From: an uncultured delta proteobacterium
GTDB lineage: Bacteria; Desulfobacterota; RBG-13-43-22
Length of the DNA stretch: 64,000 nucleotides
Assembly (NCBI GenBank): GCA_963790475.1
Contig: CAWBOS010000012.1
Coordinates: 288,001-352,000, forward strand
Direction of reading: 5' to 3'
In this document: positions 21,140 through 43,060 of the stretch, piece by piece
How positions within the stretch are numbered: the stretch's first letter is position 1
Layout of the letters: every line of letters begins with the position of its first letter
Translations under genes and position numbers: made by a program
The notes under the pieces: generated by a model
Seen by the model: the letters and a program-made list of their open reading frames with translations, nothing else
What the model was told of the DNA's origin: nothing
Database searches by the model: none

Positions 21140-21293
21140 CACCGCAGAGATACGGAGTTCACAGAGAAGAAAATTTAACAATAGCCGTTGAGAGGCCGGC
21201 ATCGGCCGAAGGCCAGAACCGGTTAGAACAATCCCGCCTCGCATGGGATTGTTCTAAAAAAATTCTCTCTGCGCTCTTGGCGCCTCAGCGGTG
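21140..21293. repeat. MITE-like palindromic element, family B copy 1
   Basis: CACCGCAGAG... and ...CTCAGCGGTG termini; internal AGAACAATCCCG...GGGATTGTTCT palindrome also found at 30241-30272 and 42992-43020. Confidence 0.7.
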
Positions 21294-21351
21294 AATAATA
21301 GCTCTTTTTAAGCACCTGAAATCGAGTTTCAATTATATAAAAGGAGATATC

Positions 21352-27337: not shown

Positions 27338-27994
27338 TTACGATTCTGTCATTCTACTTTCATTCTGGCTTCTGGATTCTGTCTTCTTAATTTTTTCCAT
27401 CAACTGCTTCATCAATATGGGATCCTTCTTTCCCGGCCGGTTCTCAACCCCGCTGTTTACATCCACGGCGTAAGGATCGACTGTTCTGATAGCCTCTTGA
27501 ATATTTTCAGGCCCCAATCCCCCGGCTAGGATAACAGGGATTCCTGCTTCCTTGGCCTTAAGGGCCAGAGGCCAGTCAAAGGTCTGGCCCGTACCTCCGG
27601 ATTTCCCCTGCTGAAAGGTATCCAGAAGTACGGCCCTTACGATTCCCTGGTATCTGTTAATATTTTTTATGTCTCTTTCGTCCTGAATACGAAAGGCCTT
27701 GATAGCCTGAGGCATCAAGTCTCGACACATTCCCGGTGATTCCTCCCCGTGCAATTGAATAAGGTCAAGGCCGCAAAAGGATCTAATCTCCTTGATCCTG
27801 GACGGCTCTTCATTGACGAAGACCCCCACGGTCTTAACCAAAGGCGGCAGAGAATGAATAATTGTCCTGGCATCTATCGGCTTTATCCGTCTGGGACTTT
27901 CGGCGAAAATAAATCCAAGGGCGTCAGCTCCCATTCCTATAGCCAGCAGCGCATCTTCCAAATTCGTTATGCCGCAAATTTTTACTCTGGTCAT
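27338..27994 (-). CDS. trpF: Phosphoribosylanthranilate isomerase
   Basis: VKICGITN, IQLHGEE, GGTGQTFDW, LAGGL, DVNSGVE motifs. Confidence 0.97.
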   Translation of the reverse strand: MTRVKICGITNLEDALLAIGMGADALGFIFAESPRRIKPIDARTIIHSLPPLVKTVGVFVNEEPSRIKEIRSFCGLDLIQLHGEESPGMCRDLMPQAIKAFRIQDERDIKNINRYQGIVRAVLLDTFQQGKSGGTGQTFDWPLALKAKEAGIPVILAGGLGPENIQEAIRTVDPYAVDVNSGVENRPGKKDPILMKQLMEKIKKTESRSQNESRMTES

Positions 27995-28066
27995 CTCCCA
28001 TTCCCCTTAAACAGGAACATCTTAGGCGCTTAGTGAATCAACATCGACAAAGTTTTGTCGATAATA

Positions 28067-29725
28067 TTATGCTGCCATTTTATAAATTTCAAAAATTTGT
28101 TGCATCTCATGTTGGATATTTTTGTAATGAATATCGATAGTAGAGAAGTTTCCAGGTTTTGGTCCGGGATGATGCTTTTCAGCGCCAGCGAGCAGAGGAA
28201 TCAATATTTTTTCCCGCAGAACAAGGACAGCCGTCATCGAACGCAAGCCCACCGGGGTGGCCATATAACAGCGCGAATGGCCGATCATTTGAACCAGATC
28301 TTTACCTCTAAACTTTTTCAAGTCATAAGAAGCCTGCCGAGCCTGATACCGGCTCTGCGGGATTCTGAGAATTTCCCGGACTTTTTCTGCCAGATTCGCA
28401 GCCGTAAATCCACGGGGATGGATAGAAAGAGCAATAACAGCTTCCATGACCGCCCGGATACGAGGCCGATTGATATCGACCCCTCCCACGGAGGTGGCTC
28501 CAACCTTAGAGGGCAGAGGCCACTTCTCCAAGGTACCGTTATCAATAAAAGAAACATCGACCCCGTTCAGAACGGTGAGGAATCTTTCCAGGACTTCTTT
28601 AAGGGATTCGCAGATCTGTGGGAAACGATCGATCCGTTTTCCGCAACGCAACTGACTCGTATTGTGAATAATAACCTCGGTTCGGAGAACCCTTTCGCCT
28701 TTGCTATACATCTTGACCGTCATTTTTCCAAAATGGATTTTGAAGATCGTCAGATCATAGACAGGTCTCTCGACCGTGATCTCGAATCGAGGCAACGGTT
28801 TCTTGCCGTGATGACTGAATGGCCGGTGTCGATAGCCAAAAATAGTTCGAACCGTCTTGAGATTCAAAGGGGCTCTGGTTCGATCGATCAAGCCCTGGAA
28901 CACCTGATCCAAAGTTCGGCCTCGGTTAAAAAGCAGATTGCGGCTATACTCCATCTGATAAACAGAATAACTGTAATGGAAGCCACTGGCTTTCTGCTCC
29001 GAAAGATCCAAGGCAAAACAAAGACAGGCCGAATAAATCCATTGATCGCAGGTCCGAACCAGACGCCCTACAGAGCACGAGGCCCTCATGGTATCCGCGA
29101 TGTGGTCCAGACCTGCGCTATCGGTCACTGCCGTAAAGCAGTTACCTTCTTTAGTAAAGACAAGCCCTTGTTTCATGGCCTGACGGGATAGATATTCATG
29201 TCCGTTCAGGATGATCTGGGCATTAAAAGGAGGATGGGGACAGAGTTTGATGGTCAGATGTCCCCATTCCGGATCCATTATGTGGAACGAATAATGGTTG
29301 ACATAGGGGTAAGGGGTCTTGGTGGAAATGTTACTGATCCCCCCGCTTTTAGATCGCTGAATGTGGAAAAGGGGTGCCGGAGCAATCCCGGCCAGAATAC
29401 AAAATACACCCCGAAAGTTCGGATCCCCGGGAATATATTGCTCGGCCACCTCGTGCTTTCGTTCACCGCGCTGGCAATGGATCAAGGGAATACCTTCTTT
29501 CTTAGCATAGGCATGAATCCGTCGGCTGAGTCGTCCGGCAAAACGCATCAGGTTGGTATCATTCAGATCGTTATCTGTTCCCTTCAAGGCCCGCCACCAG
29601 GTTCTAAATCCTCCAGGGGACTGGCCAAAAATGAAATAGGCATTGAGCACAATACGATCAATACAATCATAAATGCCGTCAAGGTAGTCTTGATATTGCT
29701 TGCAAAATTCATCTGCCATGATCAT
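28067..29725 (-). CDS. Putative transposase/replication-initiator-like protein with Rep_trans-like nickase motifs and C-terminal winged HTH
   Basis: HFGKMTVKMYSKGERVLRTEV (Y340, E350) resembles the G...Y-x-K...R-x-E pattern of Rep_trans/phage replication initiators; C-terminal GFTAANL...ASYDLKKFRGKDLV...Y..T..G wHTH; no DDE or HUH motif recognised. Confidence 0.6.
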   Translation of the reverse strand: MIMADEFCKQYQDYLDGIYDCIDRIVLNAYFIFGQSPGGFRTWWRALKGTDNDLNDTNLMRFAGRLSRRIHAYAKKEGIPLIHCQRGERKHEVAEQYIPGDPNFRGVFCILAGIAPAPLFHIQRSKSGGISNISTKTPYPYVNHYSFHIMDPEWGHLTIKLCPHPPFNAQIILNGHEYLSRQAMKQGLVFTKEGNCFTAVTDSAGLDHIADTMRASCSVGRLVRTCDQWIYSACLCFALDLSEQKASGFHYSYSVYQMEYSRNLLFNRGRTLDQVFQGLIDRTRAPLNLKTVRTIFGYRHRPFSHHGKKPLPRFEITVERPVYDLTIFKIHFGKMTVKMYSKGERVLRTEVIIHNTSQLRCGKRIDRFPQICESLKEVLERFLTVLNGVDVSFIDNGTLEKWPLPSKVGATSVGGVDINRPRIRAVMEAVIALSIHPRGFTAANLAEKVREILRIPQSRYQARQASYDLKKFRGKDLVQMIGHSRCYMATPVGLRSMTAVLVLREKILIPLLAGAEKHHPGPKPGNFSTIDIHYKNIQHEMQQIFEIYKMAA

Positions 29726-29726
29726 C

Positions 29727-29891
29727 GGTCTTTCCCTGGTCGATCTTTTGATATGGAGGGCTCCCCAGTCATTGCCGGGGCCCCTTCTCGGCGGCTGCGA
29801 GAATGGGCCCCTGAGCGGCTCGTCGGAGCAGCCGCCTCAATTAGAGGTTCTTTTACAGCTAATATCGGGGCTACCCCTTAAGGGAAAGACC
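29727..29891 (-). ncRNA. Highly structured ~165-nt leader or candidate element-encoded RNA
   Basis: Perfect 11-bp closing stem GGTCTTTCCCT (29727-29737) / AGGGAAAGACC (29881-29891) enclosing GGGGCCC-TTCTCG/CGAGAA-GGGCCCC and GCGGCT/AGCCGC hairpins; it begins immediately after a promoter. Confidence 0.55.
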
Positions 29892-29920
29892 AGATTAAAG
29901 ACTCCGGGCTTTTAAGTCAA
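29892..29920 (-). promoter_or_regulatory. Internal sigma70 promoter of the insertion element
   Basis: Minus-strand TTGACT-N17-TAATCT directly upstream of the structured leader. Confidence 0.6.
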
Positions 29921-30016
29921 CTGCCCTGTTAGGGGCCACCTCTTCCGGGGAACTCCCGGACGAGGCGTAGTAACTTAGGAATAGAATTCTACTCAAATTG
30001 GATAGAATATTTCGTC

Positions 30017-30130
30017 GTCATAAGGTCTCGCGGAGGCGGGAATCCAGGCTATTCTCAACTTATTAAAAACACTGGATTCCCTTTTTCAAGGGAATGACGA
30101 AAATAGGCTTTCGGTGACTTTTTACGAATC
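30017..30130. repeat. REP/REPIN-like palindromic element, family A
   Basis: GCGGAGGCGGGAATCCAG ... CTGGATTCCC..GGGAATGAC followed by GACTTTTTACGA outer motif. Confidence 0.7.
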
Positions 30131-30200
30131 CACCAAATGTTACAATATTTCAAATATGGTTCCGGCTTGTCCGGGTTAGGTGTTTGAAAATAAATTCTCG

Positions 30201-30422
30201 TTCACTGCAAAGCCGCAAAGAAGGCAAAGAGAATTTTCTTAGAACAATCCCGTGAGTGGCAGGATTGTTCTAACCGACTCTATCCTTCGGATAGAAAAAT
30301 TCAAAGAGGGCTTCGGCCCGAAGGGGACTACTCCCGAAGGGTTGCCAAGCGTATCGATTGCCAGCCTCTCACTGGCAATCGATACATATTATTCTTTGCG
30401 ACCTCTGCGGCTTTGCGGTGAA
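30201..30422. repeat. MITE-like palindromic element, family B copy 2
   Basis: TTCACTGCAAAGCCGCAAAG ... CTCTGCGGCTTTGCGGTGAA termini; internal palindromes AGAACAATCC..GGATTGTTCT and ATCGATTGCCAG..CTGGCAATCGAT. Confidence 0.75.
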
Positions 30423-30476
30423 AACAAGTTTTCAAAAAACTAAACTGATACCGTAAACCGAATGGGTTAAGTATTC

Positions 30477-31256
30477 TCATCTTCCTGCCTCGACCATCTC
30501 TATGGTTTTTGATTCAATGTCGGTACTGCTCATCAAGGCCGAACCGACCAGGACGGCATTAAGCTTTAATCCTTTCAGACCCTCTATATGTTTTTGGTTG
30601 TGGATGCCGCTCTCACCCACGATGATATGGCCTTCAGGAATCTGGGCGGCCAGCTCACGGGTAGTCTGCAGGTTAATCTCGAAAGTATCCAGGTCCCGGT
30701 TATTTATACCGATAATTTCCGCCTTGGCATCAAGGGCCTTTTCCAGGTCTTCCCGGTCATGGACCTCAACCAGCGCGGCCAGGCCGCATTCATGAGAGAT
30801 ATGGAGCAACTCCTTTAACTGCGCCTCGGAAAGGATTCTGACAATCAACAGGATGGCATCCGCCCCCCAGGCCAGGGCCTCCCTAATCTGTATCCCATCG
30901 ATAATGAAATCCTTCCTCAGGACAGGCAGGTTTACCGCCTGCTTCACTTCGGGCAGATTTTCCAAGTGCCCGTGAAAAAATTTTTGATCCGTCAATAAGG
31001 ATATGGCGGACGCTCCGCCCCGTTCATAAATCCGGCCGATTTTTATCGGGTCTGTCTTTTCCCGAATCCTGCCAGCCGAAGGAGAGGCAAACTTAATCTC
31101 GGCGATCAGATTGATCCGGCCCGGTTGAGATATGGCGGATTTGAAATCGCGGATTCCGGGGATCTTTCTTTGACCGGGAGAGGATAGGCCGTTTTTTTTC
31201 AGTTGGGCCACTTCCTGCTTTTTTGTTTCAAGTATTTCTATCAGCCGTGAATGCAT
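30477..31256 (-). CDS. trpC: Indole-3-glycerol phosphate synthase
   Basis: LIAEIKFASPSAG, PVLRKDFII, IIGINNRDL, ESGI motifs. Confidence 0.97.
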   Translation of the reverse strand: MHSRLIEILETKKQEVAQLKKNGLSSPGQRKIPGIRDFKSAISQPGRINLIAEIKFASPSAGRIREKTDPIKIGRIYERGGASAISLLTDQKFFHGHLENLPEVKQAVNLPVLRKDFIIDGIQIREALAWGADAILLIVRILSEAQLKELLHISHECGLAALVEVHDREDLEKALDAKAEIIGINNRDLDTFEINLQTTRELAAQIPEGHIIVGESGIHNQKHIEGLKGLKLNAVLVGSALMSSTDIESKTIEMVEAGR

Positions 31257-42718: not shown

Positions 42719-42871
42719 AACATCTTCCTCCTCTAATTTGAGTGCGGCGAGTTGTACCCGTCGTCACCTATTTTACAAACCAATTTGTAAATTTATTCTT
42801 CTCTATATCATATTGTAATGACACTGACAATACTATTTTAGATTCTTTAATTTTATGAAAACTAACTAGTT

Positions 42872-43060
42872 TTACCGCAAAGCCGCAAAGGCCGCAAAGA
42901 AGAAAATTTATCAATTGCCGGTGAGGGGCCGGCAATTGATAACCTTCGCTGCCCAATGGGCAAATATTTGATTGGAGGCCGGGCTATTTTCTTCAATCCC
43001 GCCTCTCACGGGATTGAAGAAAAATAATCCTCTCTGCGTGCTTTGCGACTTTGCGGTGAA
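42872..43060. repeat. MITE-like palindromic element, family B copy 3
   Basis: TTACCGCAAAGCCGCAAAG ... CTTTGCGACTTTGCGGTGAA termini; internal ATCAATTGCCGG..CCGGCAATTGAT and TTCAATCCCG..CGGGATTGAA. Confidence 0.75.

Follow-up and report, generated by a model that had tools for sequence, protein, structure and literature searches.

A recently active insertion sequence in a bacterial trp operon and its putative Rep_trans-like transposase

The DNA considered here (the window) is a 64,000-nucleotide stretch of contig CAWBOS010000012.1 (positions 288,001 to 352,000, forward strand) from an uncultured delta proteobacterium (assembly GCA_963790475.1; Desulfobacterota, RBG-13-43-22). Its minus strand carries a trp operon interrupted by an insert, in the order trpEG-trpD-trpC-insert-trpF-trpB-trpA. 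Between trpC and trpF lies a recently active copy of a widespread, unannotated insertion sequence (IS), whose gene encodes a 552-residue protein, P0001. The element probably belongs to a large, unannotated IS superfamily with a Rep_trans-like protein, a tyrosine that nicks 3' of CTA, and ends that permit stacking. Chances are slightly better than even that this is the first recognized IS superfamily driven by a tyrosine nickase of the Rep_trans type with a TATA-binding protein (TBP) fold. Such a superfamily would comprise at least three deep subfamilies, with their own miniature inverted-repeat transposable elements (MITEs) and with self-targeting ends that generate stacked trains; it would be abundant in environmental bacteria across phyla and invisible to annotation. 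Insertion sequences are a familiar category; within it the presumed enzyme rates as a transposase of a new kind, its chemistry being read by analogy.

The trpF-trpC insert has three parts: the 1.95-kb IS, a 212-bp MITE, and an unrelated dispersed repeat (Table 1). An earlier note on this DNA had described a single 1.96-kb block splitting trpC from trpF. The flanking genes are confirmed (PF00218 and PF00697, respectively), and the insert is larger, at 2.48 kb. Within it the mobile unit spans 28023 to 29967/29970, and reads 5'-CGCCTCG...TAAGCGCCTA-3' on the gene strand. A single open reading frame is present, as the note had said; it lies on the minus strand (28067-29725) and encodes 552 rather than 550 residues. 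Base composition does not distinguish the IS from its flanks.

Mobility is evident from comparison within the genome (20 contigs, 6.34 Mb) and with relatives. Five copies of the gene are present, with 100% protein identity and 99.6-100% DNA identity, each in a different context. Four are long forms, in which the MITE adjoins the IS; the fifth (locus L005) is the IS alone. In seven relatives from the same genus the trpF-trpC gap is -14 to 443 bp, and the IS occupies that site in none. Near-identical copies at unrelated sites, together with the compact trpF-trpC arrangement of the relatives, bear out the initial reading of an IS-like mobile element. IS-identical sequence is present also in contigs of three other DNA sequencing runs. 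Metatranscriptome contigs from a further run (X15) are 90-95% identical over window positions 28681-29158 and 29782-29856, corresponding to the gene and leader of relatives. This hints weakly at transcription of relatives in sediments, with DNA carry-over possible.

Homologues of P0001 are numerous: 5854 of 8000 scored candidates at E<=1e-3, and 5216 clusters at E<=1e-3 in an exhaustive search of 50%-identity representatives. Among 217 pattern matches in genome contigs, 211 are relatives, spanning many phyla. Relatives occur in Thermodesulfobacteriota, Planctomycetota, Chloroflexota, Acidobacteriota, Alpha- and Gammaproteobacteria, Nitrospirota, Actinomycetota, and Gemmatimonadota, and also on Mycobacterium, Rhodococcus, and Burkholderia plasmids. 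A 501-residue paralogue, P0274 ("type 2"; 22% identity, E 4e-26), heads a second, equally large family (at least 7987 of 8000 candidates match); P0001 represents type 1. In its own phylum the family was found in 11 of 301 sampled genomes, a patchy distribution typical of an IS.

Annotation has passed these proteins by. None of 120 listed homologues carries a Pfam domain, and their labels are hypothetical or, from the Joint Genome Institute (JGI), ArsR-type regulator; RefSeq labels read "hypothetical protein" or "ArsR family". Most homologues lie on contigs of about 2 kb. P0001 itself matches no Pfam (E<=1), NCBIfam, PHROG, or PADLOC family, has no relative in the PDB by sequence, and finds unnamed clusters only in the ESM Atlas. 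For 35 relatives, Pfam (E<=10) gives nothing beyond weak winged-helix matches, and the NCBIfam transposase models match none of five family members (P0001 and four relatives) at E<=1. The element thus still has no named family, as had been suspected. No described insertion sequence with such an enzyme was found in full-text searches of papers, which did not cover ISfinder and supplements. (Readings as a group II intron, a retron, or a defense system were dropped; there is no reverse transcriptase and no PADLOC match.)

Precise borders are central to the argument. CTTAGG is indeed present at 28021-28026 and 29974-29979, and had been proposed as a repeat at both junctions. It is not one, because the left junctions of the five genomic copies (CTTAGG in two, TTTAGG in two, CATAGG in one) agree in TAG only; moreover, the right-hand CTTAGG lies inside the neighboring MITE. 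The true right border is ...GGCG/TAG (slashes mark borders here), between 29967 and 29968-29970. It is shown by the lone copy L005, which ends ...GGCGTAG, six bases ahead of the right-hand CTTAGG, and by relatives in other phyla. Solo MITEs reveal the empty site: they read flank-TTAG/TAAC, and filled ones read TTAG/GCGC...GGCGTAG/TAAC. On the gene strand, solo MITEs end ...TAAGTTACTA/flank, with a single CTA. In an alphaproteobacterial metagenome-assembled genome (MAG), the one solo copy among 20 type-2 elements reads ...TAAGGGACTA/flank, again an empty site with one CTA.

The MITE occurs by itself in eight near-full copies (L006-L013) and three truncated ones (L014, L015, L017). Its 3' end (29968-29977) is TAAGTTACTA, and its 5' end, CTAACCCGG-loop-CCGGAACC, is homologous to the 5' ends of type-2 elements in Alpha- and Betaproteobacteria. 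No type-2 gene is present in this genome, so if the MITE still moves, it must depend on the type-1 protein; mobilization by that protein is suggested, in line with moving composites. Three of the four long forms carry a private 4-bp MITE variant; therefore, the composite moved as a unit. The fourth, with the common variant, may represent an independent IS insertion beside a resident MITE. Locus L013 is a deletion derivative of a long form, because its MITE bears the downstream end of the IS itself. Among the matches listed for 13 other genomes of the genus, the IS core is touched by one 100-bp piece and the MITE core is abundant.

One solo MITE (L006; G000:C10:517758-521062) has a 6-base remnant at its left edge, between flank and MITE. 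The remnant equals the final bases of the IS at its 3' end (alternatively, the first bases of the IS plus TA), and looks like the footprint of imprecise IS loss between the CGCCT direct repeats at the IS ends.

The element's ends are conserved far beyond this genome. On the gene strand, the type-1 5' end reads CTA/CGC, a hairpin, and then (G/A)GTGGCCCC-loop-GGGGCAG; the 3' end reads ATCGACAA-loop-TTGTCGA, a spacer of about 10-14 nt, and TAAG(C/G)G(C/G)CTA. The same ends occur in Thermodesulfobacteriota, Alphaproteobacteria, Acidobacteriota, Chloroflexota, Planctomycetota, and Actinomycetota. They are kept in an element of 53% identity, of which one long-read alphaproteobacterial MAG has at least 23 copies, and in a 50%-identical plasmid copy from Mycobacterium riyadhense. 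(A DNA search for further copies of the latter found one full and one partial place.) At the 5' end the search pattern matched 46 of 48 loci (44 distinct ends), and at the 3' end 41 of 53; several of the misses are near-variants by eye. The two ends are unrelated by inversion: among the 25 longest inverted repeats listed for 28000-30200 none pairs both termini, in agreement with the earlier note.

That note had also placed a subterminal hairpin at each end, and both are present: palindrome ATCGACAAAGTTTTGTCGAT at 28043-28062 and hairpin CCTCTTCCGGGGAACTCCCGGACGAGG at 29939-29965. The 5' structure (hairpin 1) is upheld by covariation. Across 41 aligned 5' ends, nine of its 11 pairs change on both sides, and 95.4% of cells are paired, compared with 79.9% in shuffles (0 of 500 reach the observed value) and 41-55% with partners slid. 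Only three cells show one-sided (G-U type) changes, versus 108 with two-sided changes; therefore pairing appears to be constrained on both strands, which suggests that hairpin 1 acts as DNA rather than RNA. RNAalifold predicts hairpin 1 and the adjacent hairpin 2 unaided. In isolation, the hairpins do not exceed chance expectation (z -1.3 to -2.8 versus shuffles). The 3' palindrome is kept mainly as sequence: the ATCGACAA arm and the terminal AAGxGxCTA alone are conserved, the latter invariant across 35 aligned 3' ends.

Short tandem duplications of the 3'-terminal motif are present at the 3' ends of L029 (...TAAGGGCCCTAAGGGCCCTAA), L070, and L104 (...GCAAGCGCCTAtccGCAAGCGCCT), and at L102 a 3'-end-like CAAGCGCCTA lies directly ahead of the 5' end. 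Repeated termination or junction integration could have left all four.

Between the 5' border and the gene lies a 242-nt leader. Folded as RNA it reaches -110.2 kcal/mol (z -4.35; 0 of 200 shuffles as stable), and folded as plus-strand DNA its z is -3.69; both folds took in the CTA at 29968-29970. This structure exceeds what the two conserved terminal hairpins account for. The sole Rfam match is a chance tracrRNA-like one in the MITE (E 0.82), and a promoter scan upstream of the gene gave nothing convincing.

The flanking sequences point to insertion directly 3' of CTA, usually preceded by TAAG-N3. In the 12 bases upstream of the 5' CTA, tallied by eye for 43 flanks (not all independent), TAAG lies exactly at -7..-4 in 21; chance expectation at a fixed place is once in 256. 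The remaining flanks show (T/C)AAG one or two bases further upstream (five), TAAC (six), xTAG (seven), AAAG (two), or none of these (two). Thus, the target mimics the element's own 3' end, TAAG-CGC-CTA. The CTAAG or CCTAAG target proposed in the earlier note is not supported. The motif is not enriched in the window (five matches versus 3.1 expected).

Since the 3' end of every element serves as a target, elements line up head-to-tail, all in one orientation. MITE-IS stacks account for four of the five copies here, and occur also at L035 and L038. In the alphaproteobacterial MAG, 19 of 20 type-2 copies run directly into a type-1 copy, and 15 of the 19 type-1 copies first examined have this type-2 plus type-1 arrangement. 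Another family member precedes type 1 at L099, at L104, and on the M. riyadhense plasmid (L116). In all, this MAG (G306; L071-L098, L139-L158) holds 20 type-2 and at least 23 type-1 copies, nearly identical, 19 of them as 3.5-kb two-gene trains; it was apparently the composite, not either element by itself, that recently multiplied in a burst.

What kind of enzyme is P0001? Its AlphaFold2 model, built from a 35-sequence alignment, has a mean predicted local distance difference test (pLDDT) score of 88.7 and a predicted template modeling (pTM) score of 0.85, with only residues 305-319 disordered. The model shows a crescent of two five-strand modules with TBP-like connectivity, as in Rep_trans proteins; a VIA structure comparison likewise indicates TBP-like sheet connectivity. 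The earlier note had proposed a structure search as a check, and in Foldseek against the PDB (for which the predicted catalytic domain was searched as part of the 552-residue model) ranks 1-4 are all chains of 4cij, the Rep_trans initiator RepSTK1. Their probabilities are 0.98-1.00, with E<=0.001 for three matches and 1.0e-3 for the fourth. Lower ranks include RepDE (4cwe, rank 46) and TBP (ranks 34 and 47). The C-terminal winged helix noticed in the sequence was recovered as well, at residues 396-517 of the model.

Conserved residues fall in suggestive places. Thirteen are invariant in 43 sequences from three deep subfamilies (D23, R24, G106, D151, G155, P166, N174, N195, Q257, E259, Y340, R348, and E350), and K342 is kept in 42 of the 43. 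P0001 contains HFGKMTVKMYSK...LRTEV. In the model, D23 lies on the first long strand, and strands 251-266, 325-332, 335-342, and 346-353 carry Q257/E259, T326/F328, K338/Y340/K342, and R348/E350, respectively. Rep_trans motif III, (R/K)xYxK, is thus matched in predicted position by K338xY340xK342 on strand 335-342, and motif IV, W/LxRxE, by V346-L-R348-T-E350 on strand 346-353.

Carr 2016 describes the Rep_trans fold as a crescent of two five-strand modules with TBP connectivity. It places the conserved residues of RepD on strands 6 (R140/D142/D146), 9 (T176/Y178), 10 (R189/Y191/K193), and 11 (R212/E214). T326xF328, K338xY340xK342, and R348xE350 of P0001 have the same order and spacing as the residues given there for strands 9-11. 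According to a review, the Rep_trans tyrosine sits in a β-sheet, unlike that of HUH enzymes. MOBT and Rep_trans enzymes need three acidic residues (motifs N', I, and IV) along with the motif III tyrosine and its lysine. That P0001 consists of a predicted TBP-fold domain of the Rep_trans kind plus a C-terminal winged helix therefore appears fairly secure. The absence of a DDE or HUH signature, remarked on from the sequence, also holds: Pfam and NCBIfam identify no DDE, Y1_Tnp, or Y2_Tnp family.

Several observations weigh against this interpretation. By sequence, Pfam finds nothing for residues 1-400 at E<=10; a profile search of the genome with PF02486 and PF05144 (E<=10) does not match the IS; and the family hidden Markov model matches none of the Rep_trans genes of three genomes. 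Alignment of profiles with hhalign gives probabilities of 0.4-3.9% (P 0.011-0.016), which are not significant. Its best local alignment does set Y340 on the Rep_trans tyrosine (score 27.7, versus at most 20.1 in 20 column shuffles and 23.2 reversed; P 0.016), and subfamily runs give differing registers for motif I. The candidate motif I of P0001 is QxE, with no RxD. The motif reading advanced in the earlier note, centered on Y340 and E350, therefore survives in fold and residue placement, and not in sequence membership. The structural superposition on 4cij is loose as well (TM score 0.20 by query and 0.36 by target, root mean square deviation 13 Å), as expected given about 190 extra residues, and RepSTK1 is absent from the 50 best VIA rows, where the winged-helix domain dominates.

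Other points against concern the DNA. Covariation of the 3' hairpin is not above shuffles, partly from unequal loop lengths in an ungapped register. The CTA found on both sides could just as well be a 3-bp duplication or the core of a crossover. Within one 220-kb stretch of a MAG contig, three copies point one way and three the other, which argues against a strict replication-strand bias of the IS608 kind. Finally, the assembled contigs of the sequencing runs contain no circle junction and no precise-excision joint.

A mechanism can be proposed nonetheless. P0001 would bind the hairpin-bearing ends, and Tyr340 would nick one strand just 3' of CTA at both borders, assisted by a metal held by invariant acidic residues (candidates are D23, E259, E350, and perhaps D151). 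By analogy with Rep_trans enzymes, the protein would attach to the 5' phosphate. The released strand would be circularized, its 3' end joined to CGC...; alternatively, the 3'-OH of the flank could prime displacement synthesis up to the next TAAG-N3-CTA, in a peel-out or rolling-circle mode. Once the strand is rejoined 3' of CTA in a look-alike target, the donor would retain one CTA and the new copy would have one on either side. A start at the MITE 5' end, with the internal junction skipped, would move MITE and IS as one unit.

The principal rival to single-strand nicking, judged unlikely, is conservative site-specific recombination of a double-stranded circle. Here a ...TAAGCGC-CTA-CGC... junction would recombine with a TAAG-NNN-CTA target by exchange within the 3-bp CTA core, following the logic of IS110/IS1111 or of small integrases. 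This model accommodates the single CTA of empty sites and its presence at either side of filled ones, the resemblance of the target to the donor's 3' end, the presence of both orientations on one contig, and the arrangement at L102, where the 3'-end-like sequence stands directly before the 5' end as an integrated junction would. However, known Rep_trans enzymes, according to reviews, cut a single strand and become attached to its 5' end, and the predicted fold matches those enzymes rather than recombinases. Furthermore, free covariation in the 5' hairpin indicates an extruded stem-loop, not a duplex core site, and the assembled contigs lack the circle that would recombine.

Quite improbable is an integrated miniature rolling-circle replicon, plasmid- or satellite-like, with a Rep protein, a double-strand origin hairpin, and a structured single-strand origin, that excises, replicates, and re-integrates. 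Small rolling-circle replicons are generally of similar size (1.9 kb), with a one-gene layout like that seen here, and the Rep_trans-like fold and strongly structured leader would suit this explanation. It sits poorly with the five copies in this genome and at least 23 in the MAG, all chromosomal with sharp, conserved borders, and with homologues that lie mostly on contigs of about 2 kb ending in flanking DNA, as repeats do. Neither a circular contig nor a back-joint occurs in the assembled run contigs, and when a viral collection was searched with the Rep_trans profile A3 for a different purpose, only seven Rep_trans loci emerged, none of this family.

The leader might instead encode a guide or regulatory RNA that chooses the target, as a bridge RNA does; its strong structure, its covarying hairpins, and its position upstream of the gene (as in IS110) are the grounds for considering this. 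The possibility is very slight: target and donor motifs are nearly constant throughout the family rather than element-specific, G-U intermediates are almost absent, Rfam offers no family, and the protein is not a DEDD enzyme. Least credible of all is a divergent DDE (RNase H-fold) transposase that uses D23, D151, and E259 and resembles Rep_trans by accident, since the invariance of those three residues in 43 sequences is offset by the lack of inverted repeats and the unlike ends, the location of E259 on a β-strand rather than a helix, the absence of any DDE family in Pfam or NCBIfam, best structural matches to RepSTK1 and TBP, and the invariant Y340, R348, and E350, which it leaves unexplained.

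Table 1. Positions of the IS, its parts, and adjoining features (window coordinates)
Feature	Position	Strand	Basis
trpF	27338..27994	-	PF00697, E 2.5e-46
IS proper ("short form"), 1945 bp	28023..29967	-	borders common to 5/5 genomic copies and relatives in other phyla
3'-terminal motif TAAGCGCCTA	28023..28032	-	AAGxGxCTA; pattern search matched here
Composite "long form" (IS + MITE)	28023..30179	-	4/5 copies, flanks differing on both sides
3' subterminal palindrome ATCGACAAA/TTTGTCGAT	28043..28062	-	ATCGACAA arm nearly invariant across phyla
Gene for P0001 (552 residues)	28067..29725	-	open reading frame and translation
P0001 residues 1-390, TBP-like, Rep_trans-like predicted catalytic domain	within 28067..29725	-	AlphaFold2 model
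P0001 residues 396-517, predicted winged helix	28175-28540	-	AlphaFold2 model
Tyr340 codon of P0001	28706-28708	-	
Structured 5' leader, 242 nt within the element	29726..29967	-	folding versus shuffles
Hairpin 2, GGCCCC-loop-GGGGC, weaker in this copy	29922..29937	-	alignment; RNAalifold
5' subterminal hairpin 1, three bases inside the end	29939..29965	-	covariation; RNAalifold de novo
CTA (TAG on plus strand) at 5' junction	29968..29970	-	once in empty sites, both sides of IS in filled sites
212-bp MITE, head-to-tail upstream of IS on gene strand	29968..30179	-	solo copies in genome
Unrelated dispersed repeat filling the gap up to trpC	about 30181..30451	.	many genomic copies, 66-82% identity
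trpC	30477..31256	-	PF00218, E 6.1e-84

The third part of the insert, the unrelated repeat at 30181-30451, has further copies elsewhere (e.g., window positions 21206-21295 and 42846-43060), contains several perfect palindromes, and again adjoins a MITE at L006. In this genus the trpC-trpF junction is prone to small insertions (L118-L124): the two genes overlap or abut in three relatives (L120, L123, L124), and in four others (L118, L119, L121, L122) they lie 108-443 bp apart with differing repeat-like DNA between. In this strain, the 2.5-kb insert between trpC and trpF may affect expression of trpFBA.

If the proposed chemistry holds, then Rep_trans enzymes also act as transposases, beyond their roles in plasmid and phage replication and in transfer of integrative and conjugative elements (ICEs). 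They would then fully parallel the HUH superfamily, whose members work in replication, conjugation, and transposition, and a further catalytic class of prokaryotic transposase would stand beside the DDE, DEDD, HUH, serine recombinase, and tyrosine recombinase classes. Proteins now annotated as "hypothetical protein", "ArsR", or "MarR", in their thousands across genomes and metagenomes, would turn out to be transposases, and many broken assemblies (the contigs of about 2 kb) would be accounted for. TAAG-N3-CTA, fixed, short, and strand-specific, together with a single protein, would make a simple system for studies of sequence-directed DNA insertion, and head-to-tail stacking a clean model for the origin of composite mobile units.

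Rep_trans initiators (RepSTK1, 4cij; RepD and RepDE of pT181-type plasmids; PF02486) are the best structural match. They share with P0001 the predicted TBP-like sheet connectivity, a tyrosine on a β-strand within (K/R)xYxK followed by RxE on the next strand, a separate DNA-binding domain, and a hairpin beside the presumed nick site. P0001 differs in having no detectable sequence membership, a predicted catalytic domain of about 390 residues versus about 200 (with inserted helices at 175-247), and QxE rather than RxD as candidate motif I. Its gene, moreover, resides in a chromosomal, multi-copy, precisely bordered element, not in a plasmid, phage, or ICE; a 2026 paper on archaeal Rep_trans-like proteins lists as hosts of the fold only plasmids, filamentous phages, conjugative transposons, and archaeal viruses. 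MOBT relaxases (RelSt3 of ICESt3, NicK of ICEBs1, and Orf20 of Tn916) resemble P0001 in joining a Rep_trans-type domain to a helix-turn-helix within an integrated mobile element, and in the logic of a tyrosine plus an acidic triad (of candidate residues in P0001). Their helix-turn-helix is N-terminal and their match to PF02486 is clear, and they serve conjugation of a large ICE that has its own recombinase, whereas P0001 is the sole gene product of a 1.9-kb element.

Among insertion sequences, IS200/IS605 elements (IS608, ISDra2) lack inverted repeats, have subterminal hairpins, are cleaved upstream of the 5' and downstream of the 3' hairpin, insert 3' of a short specific sequence without evident duplication, and have MITE-like derivatives. 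The present element resembles them in its hairpin-bearing ends, with presumed cleavage sites outside both hairpins, in its lack of inverted repeats, and in inserting 3' of a short sequence with no evident duplication, and it too has a MITE. Their enzyme is a 130-150-residue HUH protein of the Y1 type, whereas P0001 has no HUH motif and no Y1_Tnp match in Pfam or NCBIfam, and its tyrosine is predicted to lie on a strand, not a helix; in addition, the two hairpins of the element are dissimilar and there is no strict orientation bias. IS91 and ISCR elements have differing ends, a short specific target, and one variable end, so that adjacent DNA is carried along. Two unlike ends, a short target, and composites with adjacent DNA are features of this element also, but the IS91/ISCR transposase is a Y2 HUH enzyme, and P0001 has no Y2_Tnp match in Pfam or NCBIfam. 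Furthermore, the extra DNA here is in every case a further superfamily member that stops at its proper end, so stacking with junction skipping fits better than random read-through.

IS110/IS1111 elements also lack inverted repeats, and share a long structured non-coding region before the gene, repeats as targets, and a short core on both sides. ISPpu9, of this group, inserts into repetitive extragenic palindromic (REP) sequences with modular co-movement, according to the abstract of its description. IS110/IS1111 elements rely on a DEDD enzyme and a programmable RNA; the element described here instead combines a constant target motif with a predicted TBP/Rep_trans-like fold.

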